Below, one piece after another: positions 9,562 through 58,950 of a stretch of DNA of 64,000 bases. Every line of letters begins with the position of its first letter. Positions within the stretch are counted from its first letter, which is position 1. Where the stretch lies: positions 8 through 64,007 of the forward strand of contig JAZQQH010000132.1 of the NCBI GenBank assembly GCA_045628985.1, in the 5' to 3' direction. The stretch is from Bacteroidales bacterium. Lineage in GTDB: Bacteria > Bacteroidota > Bacteroidia > Bacteroidales > UBA3663. A model generated the notes under the pieces. That model did no database searches, had not been told where the DNA came from, and saw nothing but the letters and a program-made list of their open reading frames with translations. The translations under genes and the position numbers were made by a program.

Positions 9562-9591
9562 AGTTAGGAGTGAGGAGTTAGGAGTGGGGAG

Positions 9592-16274: not shown

Positions 16275-17231
16275 TTGAAACAATACGATTTTATTGAGGG
16301 CGAGATCCTCGCCTTCGACAAACCGCTTACTTGGACTTCGTTCAATCTGGTGAAGGTCGTCCGCAACAATCTCAGCCGCCGTCTGGGGATCAAGAAACTC
16401 AAGGTGGGTCATGCTGGCACCCTCGACCCTCTGGCCAGTGGTGTGATGATCATCTGTACGGGCAAGGCGACCAAGCAGATTGATCAGTTGCAGGCAGGAA
16501 CCAAGGAGTACATCGCTACGCTCAGATTAGGTTGCACGACTCCTTCATTCGATGCTGAGCATCCAGTCGATGCGACTTTCCCGACCAGCCACATTACCCG
16601 TGAGGCGGTGATGGAGGCGCTTGAGAAGTTCAAAGGAAGCATCTGGCAGGTCCCTCCTGTCTATTCTGCTTGTAAGGTAGAAGGCCGACGCGCCTTCGAC
16701 TATGTTCGTCAGGGCGAAGAAGTAGAGCTCAAGGCCAAGGAACTGGTCATCGACGAGATTGAGCTTCTCGACCTGCATCTGCCAGAACAAGGAATCATCT
16801 CACCGAAGGCCGAAAATGTTCTTTCAACAGTCCGTGAGGGTGTGGATATCAAGGAGTATGGACGCAGGAAACAAAGTATAGAGGACTTGGGTCTTGTTCC
16901 TTTCGGAAAGCAAGAGAACTCGGATAAAAAAGAGGTTTCCGCTGAGGTTGAGGCTCTAGCACCAGAGGTCAGCGAGGAAACAACTCCTCACTCCTCACTC
17001 CTCATTCCTCACTCCTCATTCCTTACCATCCGCGTTGTCTGTAGCAAGGGTACTTATATCCGCGCTCTGGCTCGCGACATTGGCCAGGCTTTGCAGAGCG
17101 GAGCTTACCTGATCAGCCTGCGTCGCACTCGTGTCGGTGATTTCCGAGTAGACCAGTGTCTTCAGGTCAAGGACGTCGAGAAGTGGGCTCTCGAAGTGCC
17201 GGTCGTTGACCATAATAATGATAATTTATAA
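16275..17231 (+). CDS. truB: tRNA pseudouridine(55) synthase with an internal insertion
   Basis: [31 protein letters not shown] start; roughly 70 extra aa before the SKGTYIR motif. Confidence 0.95.
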
Positions 17232-24024: not shown

Positions 24025-25155
24025 ATGAATATAGCAGCACTTCTCAGCGGCGGCGTAGACAGTAGCGTTGCCGTCCATCTGCTTTGTGAGCAGGGACATA
24101 AGCCAGACCTCTTTTATATCAAAATCGGTATGAACGAGGACGGCTACTCATGTCCTCAGGAGGAGGATCTCGAGATCGTCAAAGCCATGGCTCACCGCTA
24201 TGGCCTGAAGTACGATGTCGTTGATCTTCAGCACGAATACTGGGATAATGTCGTGTCCTACACCATCGACAAGGTGCGCCGCGGCTTCACCCCGAACCCC
24301 GATGTGATGTGCAACCGTCTCATCAAGTTCGGCGCCTTCGATCAGAAAGTCGGCCATCTCTACGACAAGACGGCCACGGGTCATTATGCCACGGTCATCG
24401 AAGAAAATGGCTATTCATTCCTTGGTACAACTCCTGATCCAGTGAAGGATCAGACCGACTTCCTCGCTCAGCTCACCGGCCTGCAGGTCAGCCACAGCCT
24501 TTTCCCGATCGGCTCGATGGCCAAAGGCGAGGTGCGTCGCATTGCCGAAGAAGCCAAGCTCCCCTCAGCACATCGCAAAGACTCTCAGGGCATCTGTTTC
24601 CTCGGCAAGATCAACTACAACGAGTTCATCGAGCGTTTCCTCGGCAAGAAGGAAGGTCCTATCATCGAACTCGAAACCGGCAAGATCCTTGGCAAGCACC
24701 AAGGCTTCTGGTTCCACACCATCGGCCAGCGTAAAGGCCTCTATCTCAGCGGCGGACCGTGGTTCGTCATCAAGAAAGACATCGAGCAGAACATCATCTA
24801 CGTCAGCCGCGGCTATGACCCTGAGGCGCAGAAGCAGGATTGGCTCGTGATGCGCGACATGCACTGGATCACCCTTGATCCTTTCGATCAACTGGCAAAG
24901 GATCCTGAAGTAGCAGAAAAATTATCAATTACCAATTATCAATTATCAATTAAAGAGCCTCTCGCTATGCGAGTGCTCTTTAAGATCCGCCACGTCGCCG
25001 AGCTCCGCTCTGGCCTCCTCACCGCCCGTCCCGACGGCAGCTACTACCTTAAGATGGACGAGAAGACCAACGGCGTCGCCCCCGGCCAGTTCTGCGTCAT
25101 CTACACCCCCGATGGCCGCATCTGTCTCGGCAGCGGAGAGATTTCATGGGAATGA
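24025..25155 (+). CDS. mnmA: tRNA 2-thiouridine(34) synthase
   Basis: [45 protein letters not shown]. Confidence 0.96.
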
Positions 25156-25185
25156 TTCTACACATTATTTAAATATAATATAACT

Positions 25186-25446
25186 ATGAACACCGAAATC
25201 ATCGCAAAGCTCGTAGCTCTCCTTCAGTCAAATCCAGGTTTGCAGGAGAAGCTCATGTCATTCACCAACATCAACGACGCTGTAGCTCTCGTCAAGAGCA
25301 AAGGTCTTGAGATTGCAGCTAAGGAACTCCAGGAATTCCTTACCAAGAACCTCAGCCAGGGCGATATCGCCAAGAATGTCCTCGGCAAACTCGCAGGCGA
25401 TAAGGCTGGTGCAGCCGGCGATCTTCTGAAGAATATCCTCGGATAA
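25186..25446 (+). CDS. Small protein with a Nif11-like N-terminal domain
   Basis: LQSNPGLQEKL...DAVALVKSKGLEIAAKEL resembles the Nif11 consensus; strongly biased codon usage. Confidence 0.55.
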   Translation: MNTEIIAKLVALLQSNPGLQEKLMSFTNINDAVALVKSKGLEIAAKELQEFLTKNLSQGDIAKNVLGKLAGDKAGAAGDLLKNILG

Positions 25447-25528
25447 TCCAGATTTTGACGTTACGTACACAACGTTGAAATTCTACACGAAAGGAGTCAA
25501 CACTGCTTTTCTGGTGTTGACTCCCGCG

Positions 25529-25572
25529 ATCACGGCATCCTCCCCAGCGTACGCTGTAGAGGATGCCGTGAT
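25529..25572. repeat. REP-like palindrome (GGCATCCT...AGGATGCC family)
   Basis: atcacggcatcctc...gaggatgccgtgat; two related copies at 46590-46672. Confidence 0.75.
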
Positions 25573-25613
25573 GTAAGAATCTCCAAAGTCACATAACTTT
25601 GGACACTCTTTAC

Positions 25614-25712
25614 TGCAAGATCGGACGCCACGAATTCACGGCGTCCGATTTTGCTTGCAGGATCAGACATTCTGCATTCACGGCGTCCGATCCGTGATCA
25701 AAGATTGGATTT
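25614..25712. repeat. Degenerate 42-bp-period array of alternating tcggac/gtccga motifs
   Basis: gatcggac, gatcagac, gattggat at 25619, 25661, 25703; ttcacggcgtccgat at 25635 and 25677. Confidence 0.7.
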
Positions 25713-25927
25713 CCGGAGTTCCGAACGTCTCTTAATGCAAAAAATACCATTTTATCACACTTTTTTGGCACTTCTCTTGTTTTCGTCAAATCTTTTCCTT
25801 ATCTTCGCGCCCGCTTTCTGAGGAAATACATTTTATACTCAATTTCTGACAAACTTTGCTTACTAAGTGCAGATCCTAAAAGCTTAACTGAAACACATTA
25901 TTCATCTTTTAATTTTCCTCCTTTTTC

Positions 25928-27145
25928 ATGTTAGAAAACTCTAACCAGAGTGTGCCAGCTGCAGAGGTAGCTGGTAAGACCCTTGTCGAGGAATTCATGG
26001 CCCTGAGCTATGAGTTCCGTCGCAACGTACTTTCCGACAAGTACGAAATGAGAGAAGTCTGCAACAACAGCGAAGCAGACGCCCATCCTAAGCCTTGGCG
26101 ACCTGTGACCCGCGAGAGCCAGAACACCGTCGTCCGCCGTGCCAAACGCGAACTCGGGGACCTGAAAGGCCTGAAAGCCAGCATTGACGAGTACATCCAC
26201 TCCGAAGAGACACCTGACTACGACCCGATTGCCGAGTATCTCAACCAGCTACCTGCCTGGGACGGTCGTAACTATGTCCGCGAGCTCTTCCAGCGCCTCC
26301 CTGGCCTTATCGAAGAGCAGCTCGCACAGCACAGCGTCTGGCTCCGTAGCTGTGTAGCTCACTGGCTCCAGCTCGACAATCTTCACGGCAACGAGCAGGT
26401 CCTGACCCTCATCGGCGCGCAAGGTTGTGGCAAGAGTACCTTCTGTGCACAGCTCCTCCCTCCACAGTTCCGTGAGTACTATCTTGACCACGTCAACCTC
26501 GGCAACAAGTTCGACAAGGAGATGGCCCTGACCAGCAACCTCCTCGTCAATCTCGACGAGCTTGACCAGATCAAATCCGGCAAGCAGGCCGAACTCAAGC
26601 AGATGCTCTCGAAGATCCAGGTCAACGGTCGTCCGATCTTCGGCAAGGCCCAGCGCAGTCGCAAGCGCTACGCCTCTTTCGTAGCCACTACTAACAACCC
26701 TCGTCCTCTGCAGGATACGACAGGTTCCCGTCGCTACTTATGTGTAGAAATCCCACAGGACACCATCATCCTCAACGACCATCCCATCGACTATGACCAG
26801 CTTTACGCGCAGGTAGTTTATGAGGTTCGCGAGCAGAAGCTCCCATACTGGTTCTCTCCAGCCGAGACCCGTCGCATCGAAGAAATGAACGTCAAGTTCC
26901 AGCGTGTCAGCGACCTCGAATCGATGGTCACCACCTGCTTCCGAAGACCAGAAGCCGGAGAGATTGCCATCCCTCTCTTAACACGTGACATTGTGTATAT
27001 CCTGTGCAAGAACTACCCAGAGCTCAGGCCTACACAGGGCATGAATGTCAAGGTCGGCCGCATCCTGAAGGCCTTGGATTATGAGCATAAAGCCTCTAAT
27101 CAGGGCTCTGCTTACTTCATCGTCCCGATCAAACGCGCTGCATGA
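25928..27145 (+). CDS. VapE/VirE-family P-loop ATPase (helicase-like) with a C-terminal DUF3874-like region
   Basis: LPAWDG, Walker A GAQGCGKST, LVNLDELD Walker B, ASFVATTN, DTTGSRRYL; no N-terminal primase domain; candidate promoter TATCTTCG at ~25800. Confidence 0.88.
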   Translation: MLENSNQSVPAAEVAGKTLVEEFMALSYEFRRNVLSDKYEMREVCNNSEADAHPKPWRPVTRESQNTVVRRAKRELGDLKGLKASIDEYIHSEETPDYDPIAEYLNQLPAWDGRNYVRELFQRLPGLIEEQLAQHSVWLRSCVAHWLQLDNLHGNEQVLTLIGAQGCGKSTFCAQLLPPQFREYYLDHVNLGNKFDKEMALTSNLLVNLDELDQIKSGKQAELKQMLSKIQVNGRPIFGKAQRSRKRYASFVATTNNPRPLQDTTGSRRYLCVEIPQDTIILNDHPIDYDQLYAQVVYEVREQKLPYWFSPAETRRIEEMNVKFQRVSDLESMVTTCFRRPEAGEIAIPLLTRDIVYILCKNYPELRPTQGMNVKVGRILKALDYEHKASNQGSAYFIVPIKRAA

Positions 27146-27146
27146 C

Positions 27147-27328
27147 GAAAAAATCCTTCACTCCTTCACTACTGAATCTTATCCTGCTGAGTCATAAGCA
27201 ATTCGGTAGCCAAAAATGAGTGAAGGAAGCTAAAAGATCCTTCACCATCCTTCACTCATCCTTCACTTCGATTTCTTCTTAAGAATCAGCAAGATAGATG
27301 GCCGAGTGAAGGAGTGAAGGATTTTTTC
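27147..27328. repeat. 182-bp element with perfect 24-bp terminal inverted repeats and multiple TCCTTCAC motifs
   Basis: gaaaaaatccttcactccttcact (27147-27170) is the exact reverse complement of 27305-27328; starts 1 nt after the vapE stop codon. Confidence 0.9.
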
Positions 27329-27397
27329 TCATTCATTGAAAAATTGTGGTGTACACAAACTTTTTTGATGTTTTTTACTAAAAATTGCGATATTGCG

Positions 27398-27486
27398 TAT
27401 CCGTAACTATGTTTTTTTATATACTTACGGATGAACAATGCGAATATTTTGTCCGTAAGTATGATAAATTTAGTACTTACGGATGA
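27398..27486. repeat. Alternating inverted motifs tccgtaa/ttacgga with a 52-bp period
   Basis: tccgtaa at 27400 and 27452; ttacgga at 27425 and 27477. Confidence 0.7.
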
Positions 27487-27565
27487 GGAATCTTCTACTG
27501 AAGAAAATGATACCACGACAATTTGTCACGGTATTAAAATGCAGCACAAAAGGTGCTGTCGATAA

Positions 27566-28449
27566 AATTCTGGTCGCAATGTCACACTCATGAGTCCTCG
27601 ACGCATGGGTAAGACCGGATTGGTGCCTTCGATGGATTAACCCAGTTCTTTCGTAGTTGTAGTTTGGTCTTTTCTTCTGATCCTATTTCTGGTTCTCCAC
27701 AAGTATCACTTGATTTCAAGCCACAGCAAGCCGAAAATACGCTAAGTGAGATTTTTGAATATCTGAAAAGCTCTGATAGAGAGTGTTTTATTGCACTCGA
27801 TGAATTCCAGCAGGTCACTGAGTATCCGGAGACGGGGCTGGAAGCTGCCATTCGTTCGTATGCTCAATTCTGTCCGAACGTCCATTTCATCTTCTCGGGT
27901 AGCAAGCAACATCTGATGTCTGAGATATTTGATAGTCCTCAGCGTCCATTCTATCGCAGTACGCAGAAGGTCTCCATTGGAGCAATCCCAGAACGTAGCT
28001 ATTATCTCTTTGCCGCAGAATGGCTCTCGAAAGCAGATACCATGCTTCCGCAGGAGATCTTCCATCAGTTATATGAGCGATTTGAGGGCCATACCTGGTA
28101 TTTGCAGAACGTCCTCAACCATCTTTATGAGCAACGCCCTGCCCAGGTGAGCCAGGATGTAATCAACGAGTGTATTGCAGAGATCGTCCTTTCCGAATCT
28201 GAAGACTATAAGCGTCATTATAATCTGCTGACATCCAATCAGCAGCAGTTACTACGCGCAATTGGTATTGAAAAGTGCGTGCAATCCATTAACAGCGGAG
28301 AGTTCCTGTTGCGTTATGGTTTCAAAAGTACCAGCAGCATCAATAAAGCTTTATCCTACTTATTAGACAAAGAGTATGTCTATCGTTCGGATAAAGGTTA
28401 TATCGTTTACGATCGTTTCATGGGCCTGTGGCTTTTGAATCAGGTATAA
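27566..28449 (+). pseudogene. Disrupted AAA+ ATPase (archaeal-ATPase-like, wHTH C-terminus)
   Basis: Walker A segment NSGRNVTLMSPRRMGKTGL (27566-27622) stops at TAA 27638-27640, in a different frame from the Walker B (IALDEFQQ)...FIFSGS...YDRF ORF at 27664-28449; N-terminus missing. Confidence 0.8.
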
Positions 28450-28451
28450 AG

Positions 28452-28570
28452 AGATCCTTCACCATCCTTCACGCATCCTTCACTGTGATTTCTTCTTAAG
28501 AATCAGTAGGATAGAGGGTCGAGTGAAGGAGTGAAGGATTTTTTCGCATTCATTGAAAAATTGTGGTGTA
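28452..28570 (+). repeat. Second copy of the 119-bp direct repeat (first copy 27235-27353)
   Basis: Ungapped alignment by eye gives 8 mismatches in 119 nt; starts 2 nt after the ATPase stop codon. Confidence 0.92.
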
Positions 28571-28610
28571 AAGTTAATTCCTCGAATTGAAGATATAATT
28601 ATAAAATAGT

Positions 28611-28802
28611 ATGAAAAGATCAAATAGCCCATCGCAACACATCTATAAGTTGTACGATGAATTCGAAAAGAGAGGTAAGGACACCTCGTTAATTTCCCAA
28701 GCTATTCAGCACGCCACTGGCACAGTTGGCATATCCAATCTGGAAGTTATTACGGGGTGGATAGAGGAAATGTCCAATTCTCAGACTTATGAACCATTCT
28801 AA
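28611..28802 (+). CDS. Small hypothetical protein or gene fragment (63 aa)
   Basis: ATG-initiated ORF with an AT-rich upstream region, right after repeat copy 2; no motif recognised. Confidence 0.35.
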   Translation: MKRSNSPSQHIYKLYDEFEKRGKDTSLISQAIQHATGTVGISNLEVITGWIEEMSNSQTYEPF

Positions 28803-28828
28803 ATGAGGTAGGAGGTTAATTCATATCG

Positions 28829-28872
28829 AATACAGTGCAATTATGGCGAATTCGCCATAATTGCACTGTATT
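28829..28872. repeat. Perfect 44-bp loopless palindrome between convergent genes
   Basis: aatacagtgcaattatggcgaa|ttcgccataattgcactgtatt. Confidence 0.9.
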
Positions 28873-28874
28873 TC

Positions 28875-31800
28875 TTATACAAGTTGTTTCCGATTGATGA
28901 CATCTTTAAGGACTCCGAGAATAATAATCTCTCCTTCATTTTCAAGATTGATTATTATAGGATCATATCCATCCTTATTTAATGGACGTAGTTCAATCTT
29001 GGTGTTCAAATTAGTAAGAGGATCCTTTTCGCTATGATACTGCTTAATGGTGTATTGACAATTGTAATCATTGTCCTTGCGACTCTGTCGAGCAAGAACA
29101 ATCTGGCCTTCACGGCTACCAGCATTACCAGAACCACCATACACTTCAAACACACAAAGATCTCCAGGATGTATCTTCGGAAGCATTGATTCTCCCTTGG
29201 CGCGAACGACAAACATCTGATTGTTTGGTTTTCGAATGTGTCTAGACACATCAATCCATCCTTCCATCTCTACATCATTCTTGCCTAATGATTGCACGCC
29301 TTCATCGATCAAGGCGCCGCAGGCTATGGCAACATCGTAGAGAGGGAGGAAGCGAGAGAAACGGTCGGAGATGGGAACGTTGGAAGTGTCGAGAACAAAA
29401 GGAGTGTTTTCGGCTTCTTGAGCTTCGCTCTGAACATGGTTGTCTTGGTTAATCCCATCTTTCTGTCTATTGTCTTTGCATTCAATTAATTCTTTGTATA
29501 TTCTAATCTTATCAAGGTAGTACTTTTCCATTTGAGAAACACACGATGCTTTTATGGCATTAACATAGGCCTCAATAAAATCCAAAGCTATCTTGCCGTC
29601 AATAAAAGGGATATTGATCTTTGTTTCGTTGAATAATCTATCAAAATCTCTTACCAATCCACTCAAATACCTTCCACTTGATTTATTGAACCACGTTATG
29701 AACCATTGTGCGATTGTCTCGTTGAAACCCTCAAATTTAGGCGTAGCTGTTTTCGTAAATTGCCCAGCATAGAAATCTTGGCCCATGTAGAAGAATTGCA
29801 TTCTCATCATACCCACAGCAATGACATTTCCTTTGACTTTGTGAGCTTCATCATAGTAATGAACATACCCCATGATGCCATTATTAGCGACAGTACGAGT
29901 GAAGTATGGATAACAAGCCCCTTCTGAAAAATCCAAATCTCCCTTATCTAATTTCGAATTTGATTTTATGTCGAAAAATTCAGAAACCTTTTTATCCTTG
30001 AATGTGCCTCCTTTTTCGATGAACGATTCTATAACCTTTTGTACACGAGGATCTATCTCTGAGTTTTGCATTCTAATTTTATCGCTAACCAACCAATCAA
30101 GATAGTTCTTTACTGTGTCTGCAAAATCTGATGCATTAGGGTTCTTCTCAATTTCTTTATGTTTGTCGCATGTCCAGTCATTTCCTTTCAACGAAATATA
30201 ATCTTCACAGTAATGGTTATTGAAGTAGTGCAGATTGCAATCATTCTTACCTCTTCCATAAAGAACCAATTTTACAATCTCTTCGTAACGTTCAACTGCA
30301 TGGTCTTCATTTCGGAGATTATTCTTTTGACTTGCTTTCTTTCTATTATATCTACCATAGCCATCGTTTGAAAAGTCAATGAATTTTACAAGATTTTGTG
30401 TGTCATGTGGAATGCCGACAGAGAAAACATAAATGGCAGTTTGAACATTTGCCTTTCCTCGAAAAATGTCAGCCATATGAATAGATGCTTCAAGCGTATT
30501 ATGTTTTAGCACTTCTGATGCGTAAGGCAGTCCTTTCCCACTACCAGCTTTCTCGTGAATTAGTACTGCAGCTCTTCCTGATTTCATCATTGAAAGAGCT
30601 TTCTGAACAAAAATCATACCTTTTCCTGGAGCAGAATATGGTGGATTTAGAAGAAATACAGTAGCAGGGAATGGTTCGTCTTTAAGCTTTCCTTGCTCGT
30701 AGTTGCCTTTGAATTCGAGAGAATTGCCTTGTATGATGTTTGCACTACCATCCTTCATCAAAATCATGTTGAGAACTGCAAGCATATACACATCGGGCAA
30801 TTTTTCTATTCCCAATAACTGCTTTGTTTTGATATCAAGAATCTTCTTTTCTAACTCTTTAGGACTCTGACTGTTTTTCTTGGCATCTTCAATCATCAGA
30901 TGCATAGCCGAAATGAGGAATCCTGCAGAACCTACAGTAAAATCCCATACGTAACTATCTTTGTTGACTTTACACAGCTTTGCCATCAATTCCGTGACGT
31001 ATCGAGGAGTCAAGACGACATCATTTTTGTCGCCATCAGGAATATCAACCCATTCATTCATTACGTTGAAAAGGCGGCCTGTAAAATCAATATTATGTAG
31101 TTCGCCCGTTACAAAAGGTAAGATGTTTTGTTTAATGTCTGTGTATACGGTTTTCAGTCGACTTTCTCCATTGATTGGTATCTCAAGATGTGAATGAAGA
31201 AACACCTTGTTTAGTAATTCTGTTATCATATTGATCTTCTCCACCGGCAAATCTTTTGCCTTCAAATAAGAAGATATTTTACGCATAATAATATGACCGT
31301 CAGTATCATTATCACTTTGTTCACCTCTCAATTGATCAATTCGCAATGGTTCTACCTTATCTTTAACTCCAAGGCCTGCCATAATCAAACCGGCGACAAG
31401 CTGAACACGGTTTCCAACGACAATATCTTGCTCATCATGAAGTTTCTGGTTGAGAGTCTTTAGTTTACGCTCAATATCATCTTCTAACACAAGCGTTCTT
31501 CTTTCTTTCTCCTCCTTTGACAAAGAGATATCATCAATCCTTTTTACAAACTCTTCTACATTTTTCTGCAACAGGAATGAAAGGTCTGAATATTCTCCTA
31601 CTTTTTTAGGAAGGAAAAGATTGGATTTGGCAACATAATAAACTCCAATCTCTACCTTTAACTCATCATTGACCTTGTATCCATTGACTCCAATGGCTAC
31701 TACCTCCTTATAGGATTCTGTGTTTTTCAAGATGGCATCAGCATAGTGAACGGCACCATTGACAGCATACTTTGCTATGTTATTATAGTTTGATTCACCG

Positions 31801-32093
31801 TCTTTCTTCTTGTTGTCAACCTCGCCTTCTGTATTGAATTTAACAAAGTCACCCTTTGTCCCTTTAATCTCAATCATTACAGGGATTCGACGAAGGGTAC
31901 TTGTTTCAATAAAAGATTTTATATCGGGAAAGTTTGTACCAGAACCGCCTTTCTTGCTCGGTGCTTTACGTAAAGCTTCCTCAATCTCGGGATTGATGGA
32001 TTCTGTCTTGGTATAGTATTTCTGAGAGCCGAATTGGCGCTTGCACCAATCTTCTACTTGTTCTTCTATGCTGCGAGTTGTATTTTTTGCCAT
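28875..32093 (-). CDS. Single-chain type IIG/IIB-like restriction-modification enzyme (PD-(D/E)xK nuclease, N6-adenine MTase, TRD) fused to a C-terminal S24 (LexA/UmuD-like) peptidase domain
   Basis: FPD...VMIEIKG nuclease motif; LTPRYV, WDFTVGSAGFL (motif I), LNPPY (motif IV); HsdS-like TRD (YPYFTRTVANNGIMG); LPLYDVAIACG...AKGESMLPKI..GD...TIKQY...LRPLN S24 motifs; AT-rich. Confidence 0.85.
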   Translation of the reverse strand: MAKNTTRSIEEQVEDWCKRQFGSQKYYTKTESINPEIEEALRKAPSKKGGSGTNFPDIKSFIETSTLRRIPVMIEIKGTKGDFVKFNTEGEVDNKKKDGESNYNNIAKYAVNGAVHYADAILKNTESYKEVVAIGVNGYKVNDELKVEIGVYYVAKSNLFLPKKVGEYSDLSFLLQKNVEEFVKRIDDISLSKEEKERRTLVLEDDIERKLKTLNQKLHDEQDIVVGNRVQLVAGLIMAGLGVKDKVEPLRIDQLRGEQSDNDTDGHIIMRKISSYLKAKDLPVEKINMITELLNKVFLHSHLEIPINGESRLKTVYTDIKQNILPFVTGELHNIDFTGRLFNVMNEWVDIPDGDKNDVVLTPRYVTELMAKLCKVNKDSYVWDFTVGSAGFLISAMHLMIEDAKKNSQSPKELEKKILDIKTKQLLGIEKLPDVYMLAVLNMILMKDGSANIIQGNSLEFKGNYEQGKLKDEPFPATVFLLNPPYSAPGKGMIFVQKALSMMKSGRAAVLIHEKAGSGKGLPYASEVLKHNTLEASIHMADIFRGKANVQTAIYVFSVGIPHDTQNLVKFIDFSNDGYGRYNRKKASQKNNLRNEDHAVERYEEIVKLVLYGRGKNDCNLHYFNNHYCEDYISLKGNDWTCDKHKEIEKNPNASDFADTVKNYLDWLVSDKIRMQNSEIDPRVQKVIESFIEKGGTFKDKKVSEFFDIKSNSKLDKGDLDFSEGACYPYFTRTVANNGIMGYVHYYDEAHKVKGNVIAVGMMRMQFFYMGQDFYAGQFTKTATPKFEGFNETIAQWFITWFNKSSGRYLSGLVRDFDRLFNETKINIPFIDGKIALDFIEAYVNAIKASCVSQMEKYYLDKIRIYKELIECKDNRQKDGINQDNHVQSEAQEAENTPFVLDTSNVPISDRFSRFLPLYDVAIACGALIDEGVQSLGKNDVEMEGWIDVSRHIRKPNNQMFVVRAKGESMLPKIHPGDLCVFEVYGGSGNAGSREGQIVLARQSRKDNDYNCQYTIKQYHSEKDPLTNLNTKIELRPLNKDGYDPIIINLENEGEIIILGVLKDVINRKQLV

Positions 32094-32140
32094 TGGTAGA
32101 TCGGAGTATTAGCATTGATCTACCACTCACGTGAGCGCAC

Positions 32141-32365
32141 AAAAAGGGCATGAACCTTCTTATGCGTTCTCCGAGGCTGCCTAGGAAAAGAGACCTCATC
32201 CATCGTTAAGAAATGCCCACGCCCAAAAGCATGAACATTGACCTATTAAAACGATGGATAAGGCACACTTCACCCATGGAAGTTGCCTAACCACTATTTT
32301 TGTGTTCTTATCTCTGTAATTGGTTTCCTAGGCCATTCAGGAGAACGCAAATAATAGTCAATGCG
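32141..32365 (-). ncRNA. Putative structured leader RNA upstream of the RM gene
   Basis: Nested stems 32163-72/32340-49, 32179-88/32324-33 and 32194-207/32250-63, plus two flank-to-loop pairings; mismatches on + read as G-U pairs on the minus strand. Confidence 0.65.
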
Positions 32366-32472
32366 CGTTATATGTTAATATGTTACTATTTCTGTACTTT
32401 CTGTTTTTTAATTCGTTTTATCCTCTCCACACACCAATAGTGCGTGTCGGGATGGTGTTTCTTTTTCAAGAA

Positions 32473-32697
32473 TTAGCTTGCCGCATTGTCGCAGAACATC
32501 TCGTAAAGAGCTACGGCTCCAAGATGCCAGAACTTGGTTTCTTCACGTTGAAGTCCTTGATAGGTCTTAGAGGCATAGAAGCGTTGTAAAGCCTCTAACT
32601 GAGAACAATGTTCGTTGGCGGCAATGATACCAGCTACGTTTGCTATCTTTCCTGGCAGGAATAGATACAGATTCTGCTGAGTGACTTCTAAGTTCAT
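32473..32697 (-). CDS. DUF3791-like small helical protein
   Basis: EALQRFYASKTYQGLQREETKFWHLG motif; directly follows the DUF3990-like gene. Confidence 0.7.
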   Translation of the reverse strand: MNLEVTQQNLYLFLPGKIANVAGIIAANEHCSQLEALQRFYASKTYQGLQREETKFWHLGAVALYEMFCDNAAS

Positions 32698-32702
32698 CTT
32701 CT

Positions 32703-33185
32703 CTATCGCAATTTGATGGTTTCAACTTCCTTGAATGCCAGATGCTTTAATGCCGCATTTGTGTGGAACAACAGCTGATCTACAAGGTCATATACTTTCA
32801 ACTCTCTGAGAAGGTCTTCCTTATTGAACACTCCACTTTCGTAAAGTGCAAAGCAAGCATAAACTCTATCGTTGGCAACTGGTCCATACACGAAGTCATA
32901 GTTGTGTGTGAACCCAGTCTTGTTTCTATTGTTGTCTACAAAATCTATCCATTCATCAGTGGGCTCATCGAACCAAAGGGTGTTGAGGTTCTTGACCACA
33001 TCCAAGTCAACTTCATAGACGTTTACATACCCTTCTTCCGCATCTTTCTTGTGCCGCATTACCCAATCAACTGCTTGCTGATAATCGGTAGTGGTATAGA
33101 ATCCCTCACCATAATCGAGAGTGCGGTTGGGCTTGCGGATTTCTGGGTTGCGCACTATTTCCAAGCTTCCATGATAAACCTTCAT
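32703..33185 (-). CDS. DUF3990 family protein
   Basis: VYHGS...LDYGEGFYTTT, WIDFVDNNR, YDFVYGPVAND, QLLFHT. Confidence 0.88.
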   Translation of the reverse strand: MKVYHGSLEIVRNPEIRKPNRTLDYGEGFYTTTDYQQAVDWVMRHKKDAEEGYVNVYEVDLDVVKNLNTLWFDEPTDEWIDFVDNNRNKTGFTHNYDFVYGPVANDRVYACFALYESGVFNKEDLLRELKVYDLVDQLLFHTNAALKHLAFKEVETIKLR

Positions 33186-33397
33186 ATTGCCTTCCTCCTT
33201 TCGATAAAATCATCAATTTCTTCCATTAGCCACTGGCGACTTTGCGTGTGGAGTACATCAAAATTCTCTGCGAGGTATGATGACACACCTGTCGAAAAGA
33301 ATAGTGAAGCGACCTCGACTCCATCCATTCCTTTCGTATGCTTGTATTGTTCGATACAAAACGCCACAAAGTAGGAAATGTCATTATCTCTATTCAT
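33182..33397 (-). CDS. DUF3791 family protein
   Basis: FVAFCIEQYK...YLAENFDVLHTQSRQWLMEEI; ATGA overlap with the DUF3990-like gene. Confidence 0.85.
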   Translation of the reverse strand: MNRDNDISYFVAFCIEQYKHTKGMDGVEVASLFFSTGVSSYLAENFDVLHTQSRQWLMEEIDDFIERRKAI

Positions 33398-33430
33398 CGT
33401 ATTGCTGAGCTTTCAGTATTTCTGCGTTGG

Positions 33431-33438
33431 CAAAGATA
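33431..33438 (-). promoter_or_regulatory. sigmaA -7 element for the DUF3791-DUF3990-RM operon
   Basis: TATCTTTG on the minus strand, about 33 nt upstream of the ATG at 33397. Confidence 0.65.
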
Positions 33439-33636
33439 CACATTTTAAATTATTAAATAACTATATTCTTCCTTTTTTTTAGAACTTTGGTTCATTTTTG
33501 CTTTTATTTGCCATAAATAGGTGCAGTACAATTAATTTTTTTTATTCAAATCAATCGTTTTTTTATTCTGCCAACCACAGGGCGAAGAACTTGTTATATA
33601 CTTCGTAGATATCTTTATCATTGGTGATGATATTAA

Positions 33637-33676
33637 TAAAAGAACAAGCCCAGAGATATCACATCTCCAGGCTTGT
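33637..33676 (-). terminator. Terminator of the fructan PUL, at the end of a long 3' trailer
   Basis: Minus strand acaagcctggagat-gtgat-atctctgggcttgt-tctttt. Confidence 0.75.
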
Positions 33677-33821
33677 AAAAAACACCTAATTATTTATACT
33701 ACACTATTAATAACACAACGAACCTTAGAATAAACACGGAGAAAAGAATCTAAGAATCATATTTAAGTTCAAATTCCTTTAGTAATATGACTATTACTTA
33801 GTACAATGAATTTGATGAACA

Positions 33822-34697
33822 TCAAGCATTCAGAATCTCCTCAGGGAACTTTGGCATAGCACCATTCTGGGTGCATACGAAAGCTGAGGCCTGTACAGCG
33901 ATGTGGTGTGCATCCTGGATAGACTTGCCCTTGAGATACTGAGCAACGAAAGTTGCGGTGAATGAGTCGCCTGCGCCTACGGTATCAGCTACCTGTACCT
34001 TTGGTGTTGGCTGATAGCTGGTTACGGCAGGAGAGAACACGTAGCTACCTACAGCGCCATAGGTCAGGATGACCATCTTGAGCTTAGGATAGCGAGCCAG
34101 GAGCTGGCGGCACATTTCCTCCTCAGTACCGGTGAGGCCAAGAAGTTCGGCTACGACTACGATCTCCTCCTCATTGAGCTTGAGGATGGTAGCGCGACGG
34201 AGGCTGTCCTCGATAACCTCGAGGCTATAGAAATGCTGACGCAGGTTGATGTCATAGATACGCTCGGTATCCATATCCATAGCGTCGAGGAAGCGCATGA
34301 TGGTGTCACGGCTGCCAGCAGAGCGCTGAGCCAAAGAACCGAAGCATACGGCGCGGGTCTTCTTGGCCAAGTCCTCGAGTTCGTCGCTCCAAGGGATGTT
34401 GTCCCAAGCTACGTCCTCGCAGATCTCGTATGCAGGAATGCCATCGCCAGAGAGGGTAACCTTTACGGTACCGGTTGGCTGTGCCACGCGAGCAATACGG
34501 TTGTCGAGGTTCACGCCACGGACGATCTGCATGATCTCGTCACCCAATTCGTCATTGCCTACTGCTGAGATAACTACACTGTGCCAGCCGAACTGACCTA
34601 CATGATATGCGAAGTTTGCTGGAGCGCCACCGAACTTACGACCTTCTGGGAGGCAATCCCAAAGTGCCTCGCCCATGCCTACGATAATATCTTTCAT
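33822..34697 (-). CDS. PfkB-family carbohydrate kinase, probable fructokinase
   Basis: GEALWD, GGAPANFAYH, VCFGSLAQRS, DTVGAGDSF; fructan PUL context. Confidence 0.92.
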   Translation of the reverse strand: MKDIIVGMGEALWDCLPEGRKFGGAPANFAYHVGQFGWHSVVISAVGNDELGDEIMQIVRGVNLDNRIARVAQPTGTVKVTLSGDGIPAYEICEDVAWDNIPWSDELEDLAKKTRAVCFGSLAQRSAGSRDTIMRFLDAMDMDTERIYDINLRQHFYSLEVIEDSLRRATILKLNEEEIVVVAELLGLTGTEEEMCRQLLARYPKLKMVILTYGAVGSYVFSPAVTSYQPTPKVQVADTVGAGDSFTATFVAQYLKGKSIQDAHHIAVQASAFVCTQNGAMPKFPEEILNA

Positions 34698-56616: not shown

Positions 56617-58950
56617 ATGAGATTCTTAACTAATCTTTCCCGTTTGTGTGCTTTGGCGCTTGTCTGCCTTTGTTGCGCTTCTGTAGCCATTGCACAGGAT
56701 GGACGACCTTTCGGTTGGGCTTGTAGCAGCTCTGCTACATCGGGTGATGACTATCAACTGACTGGCGGCGGCGATGGCAAGCGTATTACTCTGACGTCGA
56801 CAGGCAATGACATGCGCAAGGAGATTACCAACGCTGTCAAGAAGTACGATGTGGTGATTCTGGATGGTTCAAAGGGAGATTTCTTCGTCTCTACGTCCAT
56901 CTCGCTCTCCAATCTGCAGAATAAATCCATCGTCGGTATCAATGGAGCTCGTATCTGCACGCAGTTCTACATCACTCCGGAGATTCACCAGATGCTGGTC
57001 GATGTTGGTGCGCTTGAGGCTTCTACTTCGTCTGGCACAGGAGGAACATTGAAGGTCGGAGATGAAGAAGTCAAGATCTCGGAGGAGTGTGAGTTCCTTT
57101 GCCGTAGTACGATTTATAAGGCATGGGGCAATGAGGACTATCGAGAATCTGGCATCTTTAAACTCAGCCATTGTGAGAATTTCATTATCCGAAACCTGAA
57201 GCTGGCAGGACCTGGTTCCATTGATGTGAGTGGCAATGATGTCCTTTCGGTCATCGCCTGCAAGCATGTATGGATTGACCATTGTGACTTGACTGATGGT
57301 ATGGATGGCAACATGGATATCACGCAGGGCTCGGACTTCATCACCGTGTCGTGGTGTACGTTCAGCTATACTGAGCGAGCTTTCATCCATCAGAACACCA
57401 ATCTGGTGGGGCATAGTGACAACTCCAAGATGGACGATGGCCTTCTACACGTTACCTATGCTTATAATGTCTGGGGTCATGGTTGCCGCGCCCGCATGCC
57501 TATGGTTCGCTTTGGCACGGTGCATCTGCTCAACAACTACTATAACTGTGTGGGTAACCTGACGCCTTGCATCAATGCTCGCAAGAACTCTTCCCTGCTT
57601 ATCGAAGGTAACTATTTCGAGAAAGGTATCACTCGTATCTTTGCACAGAAAGATGCTACCATCTGGGTGTGGGATAAGAGCAACAATGTCAATGAGAAGT
57701 TCGAGCCATCGAGTCAGGGACAGCTCTCTATACCTTATAAATATATACGCGAGAAGGCTGACAAGCTGCCAGCACTCCTGACTGGTAGTCATGGCGCAGG
57801 TGCAACCTTAGGAGACCCTTTGGCCAATAATGATACTGTAAGATATGAGGTTCTGAAGTCAATGCCAGCTTACTACGAGCAGCTGAGATCGCAGCTCACT
57901 TATCCAATGGCTTGGCGAAATGCTGGTATTCGCAAGTTTAATGTCTGGCGTGCAAAGGCGCGTCAGACAGTTTTTGATTTGATGGGAAATCTTCCTCCTG
58001 CGCCAAAGAACTATGACATGAAGGTGGTTGATGCGGAGCAGCGTGAGGGATATACGGCTTATAAGATTGAGTTTAATATCTCCGAGTGGACCCGCATCCC
58101 TGCGTATCTTCTCGTTCCGGGCAACAACTCCTCACTCCTCACTCCTCACTCCTCACTCCCCCCGATGCCTGCCATCGTGGCTCTCCACGATCATGGCGCA
58201 CATTTCAGCATTGGTAAGGAGAAGATGATCCGTCCATTCAAGGTTTCTTCTGCTATCTTGGAAGACGCTCAGTCATGGGCAGATAAGAATTATGACGGTG
58301 TATTCTTTGGCGATTATCTGGCTAGTCAGGGTTTTGTTGTGTTGGCCATAGATGCACTCTTCTGGGGAGAGCGAGGCCGTAAGGAAGGTGTTGACTATGA
58401 CGCTCAGCAGGCCTTAGCGTCGAACTTCCTGCAGATGGGAACCAATTGGGGTTCCATCATCAATATCGAGGACATCCGTTCTGCCGAGTTCCTGGCATCT
58501 CTGCCTTTTGTCGATGCGAAGCGCATCGGCTGTTGTGGCCATTCGATGGGTGGCTATCGCTCTTGGATGCTGGCTGCGCTCAGTGACGTCATCTCGGCCA
58601 GCGCCAATATCTGTTGGATGAATGATACGGATCACCTCATGACCTTGACCAACAATCAGAACCGTGGTGGTTCTGCTTATTCCATGCTTATTCCGGGCTT
58701 GCGTAACTATCTTGATTATGCCGATGTTGCAGCTATGGCTTGTCCGAAACCTACCTTATTTTTTAATGGTACGAGCGATAAACTGTTCCCTGTTGAGGGA
58801 GTGGAAAAGGCTTATCAATCAATGCAAAAGGTCTGGGATAGTCAGAAAGCAAAAGACAATCTGGTGACGAAGATTTGGGAAGAGAAGCACTTTTTCAATA
58901 AGCAGCAACAAAAAGAAGTGCTGGATTTCTTCACCCAGCACTTAAAGTAA
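56617..58950 (+). CDS. PL1 pectate lyase fused to an alpha/beta-hydrolase (dienelactone hydrolase/esterase-like)
   Basis: Signal peptide; VWIDHC, DGNMD, RMPMVRFG PL1 motifs; C-half LHDHG and GHSMGG nucleophile elbow. Confidence 0.88.
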   Translation: MRFLTNLSRLCALALVCLCCASVAIAQDGRPFGWACSSSATSGDDYQLTGGGDGKRITLTSTGNDMRKEITNAVKKYDVVILDGSKGDFFVSTSISLSNLQNKSIVGINGARICTQFYITPEIHQMLVDVGALEASTSSGTGGTLKVGDEEVKISEECEFLCRSTIYKAWGNEDYRESGIFKLSHCENFIIRNLKLAGPGSIDVSGNDVLSVIACKHVWIDHCDLTDGMDGNMDITQGSDFITVSWCTFSYTERAFIHQNTNLVGHSDNSKMDDGLLHVTYAYNVWGHGCRARMPMVRFGTVHLLNNYYNCVGNLTPCINARKNSSLLIEGNYFEKGITRIFAQKDATIWVWDKSNNVNEKFEPSSQGQLSIPYKYIREKADKLPALLTGSHGAGATLGDPLANNDTVRYEVLKSMPAYYEQLRSQLTYPMAWRNAGIRKFNVWRAKARQTVFDLMGNLPPAPKNYDMKVVDAEQREGYTAYKIEFNISEWTRIPAYLLVPGNNSSLLTPHSSLPPMPAIVALHDHGAHFSIGKEKMIRPFKVSSAILEDAQSWADKNYDGVFFGDYLASQGFVVLAIDALFWGERGRKEGVDYDAQQALASNFLQMGTNWGSIINIEDIRSAEFLASLPFVDAKRIGCCGHSMGGYRSWMLAALSDVISASANICWMNDTDHLMTLTNNQNRGGSAYSMLIPGLRNYLDYADVAAMACPKPTLFFNGTSDKLFPVEGVEKAYQSMQKVWDSQKAKDNLVTKIWEEKHFFNKQQQKEVLDFFTQHLK

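Follow-up and report, generated by a model that had tools for sequence, protein, structure and literature searches.

A 64,000-nt stretch of the contig JAZQQH010000132.1 (C132), hereafter the window, contains a gene for a VapE-family protein (vapE) followed directly by a 182-bp palindromic element rich in short repeated sites, or iterons. Beyond the element lie an AAA ATPase gene, a half copy of the element, a small open reading frame (ORF) and genes for defence. The host is a draft Bacteroidales genome (G000; 3.65 Mb, 49% G+C, 89% complete), and the DNA of the locus was also present in animal gut sequencing runs. The first-pass annotation had described an integron-like layout without an integrase. 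Its coordinates of vapE and the element, the 24-bp inverted repeats, the eight sites, the 119-bp repeat and the 44-bp palindrome were all reproduced, and no integrase match was found on C132 or on C42, the contig with the second vapE locus of this genome.

The element (27147-27328) begins 1 nt past the vapE stop codon and is bounded by perfect 24-bp terminal inverted repeats. Its two arms, 91 bp each, form an imperfect palindrome centred at 27237/27238 and together carry eight TCCTTCAC/GTGAAGGA sites, arranged >> < >>> <<; the element was predicted to fold as a long hairpin (z -8.7). The window held 14 such sites when 2.4 were expected, a number reached in 0 of 100 shuffles. The right arm together with 25 nt of flank (27235-27353) recurs as a 119-bp direct repeat at 28452-28570 with 8 mismatches, the second copy starting 2 nt past the ATPase stop codon. 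The spacers are 62% A+T, compared with a family mean of 58% and 51% for the genome. A box in the spacer, AATCAGCAAGATA, resembles a relaxed form of the binding consensus of integration host factor (IHF); under that consensus it was found in 8/8 elements of G000 and in 11/55 family elements, against 1.4 expected.

The vapE product matched the Pfam VapE-like family (E 4e-34), followed by DUF3874 at amino acids (aa) 329-397, and its Walker A (GAQGCGKST) and Walker B (NLDELDQ) motifs are conserved. Pfam detected no primase domain in it, the N-terminal archaeo-eukaryotic primase PF08800 being absent, and no nuclease domain was found; the two PF08800 matches in G000 are both on contigs other than that of the VapE locus. 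An AlphaFold2 model built from 18 sequences had a mean local confidence (pLDDT) of 75, with parts of the ATPase below 50, and a template-modelling score (pTM) of 0.63. Foldseek returned as best match PriRep1 of the Staphylococcus aureus pathogenicity island SaPI1 (7PDS, E 2e-11). The same protein ranked first in VIA (Z 15.5, root-mean-square deviation 8.4, 344 residues aligned), ahead of NrS-1 (Z 8.2) and SaPI5 PriRep5 (Z 7.4). The C-terminal part, aa 325-405, matched the winged helices of RFX (8zjr, Z 6.9) and of the P4 origin-binding domain (OBD; 1ka8, Z 5.8). On this model, VapE is predicted to be a self-loading helicase-initiator of the SaPI Rep1 type. In the cited section on SaPIs, the origin lies directly behind rep and has 6-12 iterons in opposed orientations, to which the C-terminal winged helix binds (PMC9371898). 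The cited part of a preprint on PriRep5 describes a wing that lies in the major groove and reads bases there, with a single hexamer on three direct iterons and one inverted iteron (bioRxiv 10.64898/2026.10.17.759575).

Homologous loci were collected from genomes of the genus, from 33 metagenome contigs and from the best 80 of 386 confirmed genome matches; within those 80, the closest VapE homologues were 67-89% identical and belonged to Bacteroidales or Prevotella. A class-wide draw of 200 genomes gave no match at E 1e-90, so that the VapE subfamily was not found outside records of gut Bacteroidales/Prevotellaceae. A locus was counted as having an iteron cluster behind the gene if the 230 nt past the stop codon held one 6-mer in at least four exact copies and in both orientations; 55 of 92 non-redundant loci did so, and 111 block shuffles never exceeded 3 copies. 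The iteron motif was lineage-specific.

Six near copies of vapE were compared by region. Their cores (aa 60-377) were 90-94% identical, with 0.04-0.06 nonsynonymous (dN) and 0.5-0.7 synonymous (dS) substitutions per site; judged by the dN/dS ratio of ~0.07, vapE is under purifying selection. The stretch of aa 378-403 was 100% identical in 4/4 pairs sharing a motif and 50-62% identical in 11/11 pairs with different motifs, where dS was high or saturated. Since the identity of the wing followed the motif over so conserved a core, wing and element appear to have been exchanged as one block. Across 43 loci (12 of the 55 were removed by hand for a frameshift or unclear orientation), wing similarity correlated with motif similarity at given core identity (partial r 0.21, permutation p 0.0005), the maximum among 74 control windows being 0.15. 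Position 392 is His or Asn in 57 loci; 3 of these were tied, and 49 of the other 54 had an excess of the matching pentamer (TC[AC]C or TA[AC]C). This position changed 11 times on the tree, where just 6 well-supported independent pairs were available, 3-5 of them concordant and none opposite (median p 0.06). As a correlation, these comparisons showed that motif and wing swap together. Combined with the predicted fold, they agree with the earlier proposal that the cluster is a site acted on by VapE, and it is very probable that the sites of the element are bound by its own VapE.

Most relatives have arms on both sides of the gene. Among 57 loci with at least four downstream sites, 33 had at least three cognate sites within 500 nt upstream, compared with 28/1116 in a control using the motifs of other loci, and the upstream sites mirrored the downstream arm. 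In 33 loci chosen for two arms, these aligned over 36-162 nt with 63-96% identity and bounded 1.4-1.8 kb. Five named genomes showed the two-arm layout in 8/11 short copies, with up to three per genome. In the clade of the window, both arms are fused 3' of the gene, which is the SaPI order, and an upstream arm was found in 0/4 intact copies. The left arm lies 800-1200 nt 5' of vapE at L157, L199 and L227, and the latter two loci enclose an extra gene between the arms.

Within G000, the 119-bp repeat occurred in four copies confined to the two vapE loci, whose cargo differs, in line with the check that the first-pass annotation proposed; the adjoining family of repetitive extragenic palindromes (REP) has dozens of copies. 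A plain REP or miniature inverted-repeat transposable element (MITE) was accordingly rejected as an account of the 119-bp repeat, though orphan elements with sister motifs exist. On C42, vapE is 90% and the element 92% identical to those of C132, and different cargo (Bro-N, PADLOC PDC-S13) is followed by a second half element, with type III restriction-modification (RM) and DndD-like genes beyond it. The first 140 bp of C42 also form the ends of contigs C33 and C105, indicating that the C42 copy was collapsed from two contexts or two strains. The half elements at C132, C42 and C20 all begin at the dyad centre, and the 3' flank of each half copy of C132 and C42 resembles that of its own full copy. 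Four more elements of the same plan carry other motifs (TCTGCCAC at C20, C86 and C102; TCCTCCAT at C126) and have no adjoining vapE. On C6, a REP array is joined to vapE from aa 275. The REP-like module at 25529-25572, which also occurs genome-wide in G000, has ATCCTTCAC in one arm and the complement of ATCCTCCA in the other; these are the motifs of two VapE alleles, and their presence there could be accidental or reflect a weak upstream site. Opposed heptamer arrays of AGTGAGG/AGTTAGG around short spacers (G000:C20:27493, C40:4133, C60:41, C90:7275 and C102:26225) form a separate family.

The element was detected in 4/36 congeners. Three of the 12 element loci fetched from relatives lay behind vapE, two behind 3' stubs of the gene, and seven had no vapE match. 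The iteron end is retained in the stubs, whose starting points are aa 241, 275, 363 and 379, the final two codons, and the dyad centre; most of them are joined to a REP array. Hairpin-driven deletion accounts for them equally as well as one-ended copying. Different motif alleles occupied the same site in G000:C20 and G018:C154, and in G000:C42 and G018:C182. G000 has no vapE at C22 and C89, where G004 is filled, and at the mnmA site G004 and G018 have the REP array and no vapE. Flank searches for empty alleles in named genomes gave no match in 2/4 cases and shuffled gene order or another repeat element in the others. At L309 (~1330-1470), an element of opposed GGTTACA repeats sits where L183 has the vapE unit.

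What follows the element also differed between assembled runs, in line with the earlier expectation that cargo varies across strains. Run X1 had the repeat-ATPase join of the window, and X2 and X15 had a different join at 27352, where the ATPase leader meets other DNA without the 119-bp repeat. One X15 contig skipped the 63-aa ORF, X3 skipped most of the type IIG gene, part of the PDC-M13 genes was skipped in X2 and X3, and X4 continued into other DNA behind the 44-bp palindrome. Among the joints listed in the assembled contigs, none led from 28570 to 27354, as in a circle, and none skipped 1217 bp, as in an empty site; such a junction would resemble the repeat itself, so that this speaks neither for nor against either form. 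The cargo is variable, yet it does not come in clean cassettes bounded by repeats. Defence matches adjoined 8 of 15 scanned loci of the window's clade, in line with the notion of a defence hotspot; in the wider family, the neighbours are mostly ordinary genes or DUF6078. At L038 (G018:C54, ~120-930), a half iteron element lies between an array resembling clustered regularly interspaced short palindromic repeats (47-bp repeats) and a 3' stub of an AAA ATPase gene.

Flank proteins were taken from 74 of 133 downstream candidates plus 4 others, and from 44 of 68 upstream candidates. The 78 downstream proteins included 22 of DUF6078 and 1 integrase, and the 44 upstream ones two of DUF6078 and four HU-like proteins. 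The usual partner gene, directly past the right arm at L073, L167, L188 and 19 more loci, encodes DUF6078, a protein of 145 aa in which four cysteines are invariant and the C-terminal part is helical; DUF6078 was not found in G000. A role as a hidden recombinase was rejected, as its good model (pLDDT 89) gave no match above Z 4.5 among 48,161 chains. Rolling-circle spread by a REP-associated Y1 transposase was likewise dropped, no such gene having been found in G000 at its 89% completeness.

We propose, with a probability of roughly 0.6, that VapE and the 182-bp element represent a helicase-initiator with its own iteron origin, a selfish chromosomal origin driving breaks and recombination at its arms. 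The DUF3874 wing would read the iterons of the element directly behind vapE, and each arm, with its three in-phase sites and one inverted site, would load one hexamer, by analogy with the SaPI structures. A histone-like protein may bend the spacer. The sites would likely serve to load the helicase and open the DNA. The host primase could then join in, with in-place unwinding and re-replication beginning at or between the arms. Fork repair would yield half elements from the dyad centre, allele swaps at one site and deletions in which the iteron end stays fixed; it would also turn over the flanking cargo, including defence genes, and occasionally allow spread to new sites via host recombination. 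That VapE-origin activity causes these rearrangements and the spread is a tentative proposal, with the odds leaning somewhat against it. Further still, a one-gene selfish element of ~1.7 kb and of a new class can be imagined, a self-loading helicase between or before two origin arms, lacking primase, integrase and transposase, that copies itself by chromosomal firing and host repair, escapes rivals by swapping its 26-residue wing with the iterons according to a readable protein-DNA code, and seeds variable hotspots of defence genes and other cargo in gut Bacteroidales; we consider this full scheme unlikely.

Several observations weigh against the proposed origin. The strict iteron cut-off left 37 of the 92 loci below it. 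At G007:C69 the motif is the same TCCTTCAC, yet the wing is only 50% identical to that of the window. The permutation test for the wing-motif correlation accounts for kinship only via core identity, and the His/Asn rule was framed post hoc, with just the 6 tree pairs and their median p of 0.06 behind it. The spacers, at merely 62% A+T, are not a strong melting tract. Some orphan elements with 8/8 perfect sites have motifs to which no matching vapE was found in the 89%-complete G000. No close plasmid or phage homologue was found either, the best being 36% identical and IMG/VR giving none with a single-protein query.

The first alternative is that VapE binds the arms without their being an origin, either looping and repressing its own promoter or holding a nucleoprotein complex, with the rearrangements arising from the palindromes themselves. 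It suits the upstream arm of most relatives, located 170-350 nt before the start codon beside the promoter, as well as the long predicted hairpin and the modest A+T content of the spacers. Against it stand the window's clade, with both arms downstream and no upstream arm in 4 intact copies, the invariant helicase motifs, and a fold matching that of an initiator whose iterons form an origin. We regard this alternative as improbable.

Also improbable is a transposon-like unit in which the arms are the ends, VapE a targeting or remodelling ATPase, the transposase supplied in trans, and the 182-bp element a miniature derivative. The inverted-repeat arms do bound compact units, the outermost left iteron is often where related copies become similar, and orphans exist. 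Moreover, the 47 loci with both flanks fell into 45 groups with no flank protein in common between groups. Insertion sequences (IS) and MITEs share with the family terminal inverted repeats, a single gene between the arms (in relatives) and gene-less derivatives. However, the gene here encodes a helicase in which no nuclease domain was found, and the unit contains no transposase; none was present among the 122 flank proteins either, nor was a Y1 transposase found in G000. No target duplication was detected in 33 loci, the longest shared word averaging 3.8 nt against 3.6 in mismatched flanks, with ends set by the alignment. Right boundaries extended past the arm through DUF6078, and two copy pairs with a sharp left boundary also shared their right flank, so that there the arm marks a rearrangement and not a new insertion.

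A third, quite improbable explanation regards the loci as inactive relics of larger integrative satellite-like islands (integrase-primase-Rep-ori) stripped of their other genes. Distant homologues (24-30%) in IMG/VR adjoin integrases, one of them in an island with xis, a fused primase and RM cargo, and an integrase-primase-VapE-RM island is the likely ancestral setting; stubs, pseudogenes and orphans are frequent as well. The intact frames and low dN/dS speak against decay, wing and motif are still changing together, and one compact layout is kept over ~90 loci. In a seed search in which 36 of 91 loci had 5 kb on both sides, nine integrase seeds matched 3/91 loci and four BT4734-type N-terminal primase seeds matched 0/91. 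Finally, it is very unlikely that the 119-bp repeat is an attC-like site at which an integrase acting in trans captures and excises cassettes: the two G000 loci have different single genes between the full and half elements, both halves begin at the same point, and nine tyrosine recombinase genes above the cut-off lie elsewhere in G000, but there are at most two repeats, the ATPase cargo also occurs without a repeat, an extra arm copy was found in merely 3/45 relatives' loci (each time the gene's own left arm), and the motif follows the VapE wing.

Among known systems, the locus works like the Rep-origin module of SaPI or P4 and belongs to neither, because it has no primase and no integrase. 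With SaPI Rep1 and its origin (7PDS) it shares the whole-length fold, the C-terminal winged helix and opposed short iterons directly 3' of the gene. Unlike SaPIs, it has no adjoining primase, integrase or packaging genes and no strongly A+T-rich centre, it occurs in several copies per chromosome, and most relatives' arms flank the gene rather than trail it. The winged helix resembles the P4 OBD of the alpha protein, tied with other winged helices. The crr region of P4, 3' of the alpha gene, comprises two direct repeats of octamers, each 120 bp long, and ori and crr act at a distance; here the second 119-bp copy is set apart by cargo and absent from most loci, there is no primase domain, and integrase, psu, sid and delta were absent among 8 proteins around the locus. 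Integron arrays also have a repeat right past the stop codon and bracket single variable genes near defence genes. The locus differs from them in lacking an integron integrase and in a repeat tied to the helicase wing, and precise cassette capture, as first suggested, found no support, given at most two repeats per locus, the ATPase leader without a repeat in X2 and X15, and common orphans.

The primase-VirE-DUF3874 fusion of the BT4734/VirEN type has VirE (VapE) and DUF3874 in common with this protein (PMC11724360), which itself is without the N-terminal primase domain; VirE was predicted to be a mobile-element helicase (PMC5862659). The passages cited from these two papers describe neither iterons nor a specificity of DUF3874. 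VapE is treated as a virulence factor in a passage of another report (PMC7981956), and our results argue that the "virulence-associated protein E" of this family is a replication protein and not a virulence factor. In a literature search covering mostly open-access main texts, no description of iterons beside VapE/DUF3874 genes or of DUF3874 specificity was found. On the present reading, two uncharacterised domains (DUF3874, and VapE as it occurs in Bacteroidales) and an intergenic repeat family acquire a function that can be tested, and the dozens of natural protein-site pairs should make a wing-to-base code readable. If the origins fire, each genome would have several additional gene-encoded origins with no accompanying integrase, the enzyme by which a satellite normally leaves the chromosome first. 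Defence genes would then be locally amplified, rearranged and turned over by a route not yet described, and the origins would supply orthogonal replicons for Bacteroidales of the rumen and gut.

Table 1. Positions in the window of vapE, its iteron element and the surrounding features.
Feature	Position	Strand	Remarks
Array of REP-like short palindromes	25450..25700		genome-wide family; 5' of vapE here and at other clade loci, also solo
vapE	25928..27145	+	405 aa; predicted self-loading superfamily 3 (SF3) helicase-initiator, SaPI Rep1-like, without primase domain
DUF3874, predicted winged-helix origin-binding domain	26912..27118	+	aa 329-397
Specificity block	27059..27136	+	aa 378-403; end of recognition helix and wing; changes with iteron motif
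Iteron element, left arm	27147..27237		>> spacer <; aligns with reverse complement of right arm, 91 bp
Iteron element, right arm	27238..27328		>>> spacer <<; dyad centre 27237/27238
IHF-like box AATCAGCAAGATA in spacer	27284..27296, again 28501-28513	+	relaxed consensus
119-bp repeat, copy 1	27235..27353	+	right arm and 25 nt
Separate TCCGTAAG-type palindromic repeats	27400..27491		within ATPase leader
Broken AAA ATPase cargo (ATPase_2/AAA_14 type)	27569..28449	+	open frame 27664-28449
119-bp repeat, copy 2	28452..28570	+	half element, begins at dyad centre
63-aa ORF, no known family	28611..28802	+	homologue 5' of vapE in G062:C18
Perfect 44-bp palindrome	28829..28872		between convergent genes; core recurs after C42 half element
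Type IIG RM fusion, S24 peptidase-like tail	28875..32093	-	adjoining defence gene
Three genes matching PADLOC candidate PDC-M13 (DUF3990, DUF3791)	32473..33397	-	PADLOC match

The surroundings of the element are summarized in Table 1. The first-pass annotation had placed an ATPase cassette between the repeats; an ATPase does lie there, but as a pseudogene. Compared with an intact 370-aa homologue, it has aa 31-49 and aa 97-368 in different frames, and 47 codons (aa 50-96) are gone. The 63-aa ORF gave no Pfam, PADLOC or Atlas match, and no RNA family of Rfam matched within 25000-34000. The adjoining defence genes were recognized again as the type IIG RM gene and the PDC-M13-like trio. The AAA ATPase genes of G000 have upstream palindromes of their own, which are gene-specific (27400-27491; G000:C42:107050-107110). 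The leader 5' of the type IIG gene (32138-32372) is found again at G000:C65, and its depth in the runs is high. On the other side, the gene 5' of vapE encodes an 86-aa Nif11-like protein (25186-25446) and follows mnmA; it is present after mnmA in G017 and G062 and absent from the same site in G004 and G018. The mnmA gene itself contains a short dispersed A+T-rich repeat in frame (24920-24954), its protein having 376 aa here and ~362 in many congeners, and similar repeats were found at 9562, 16975-17024 and 58123-58159.

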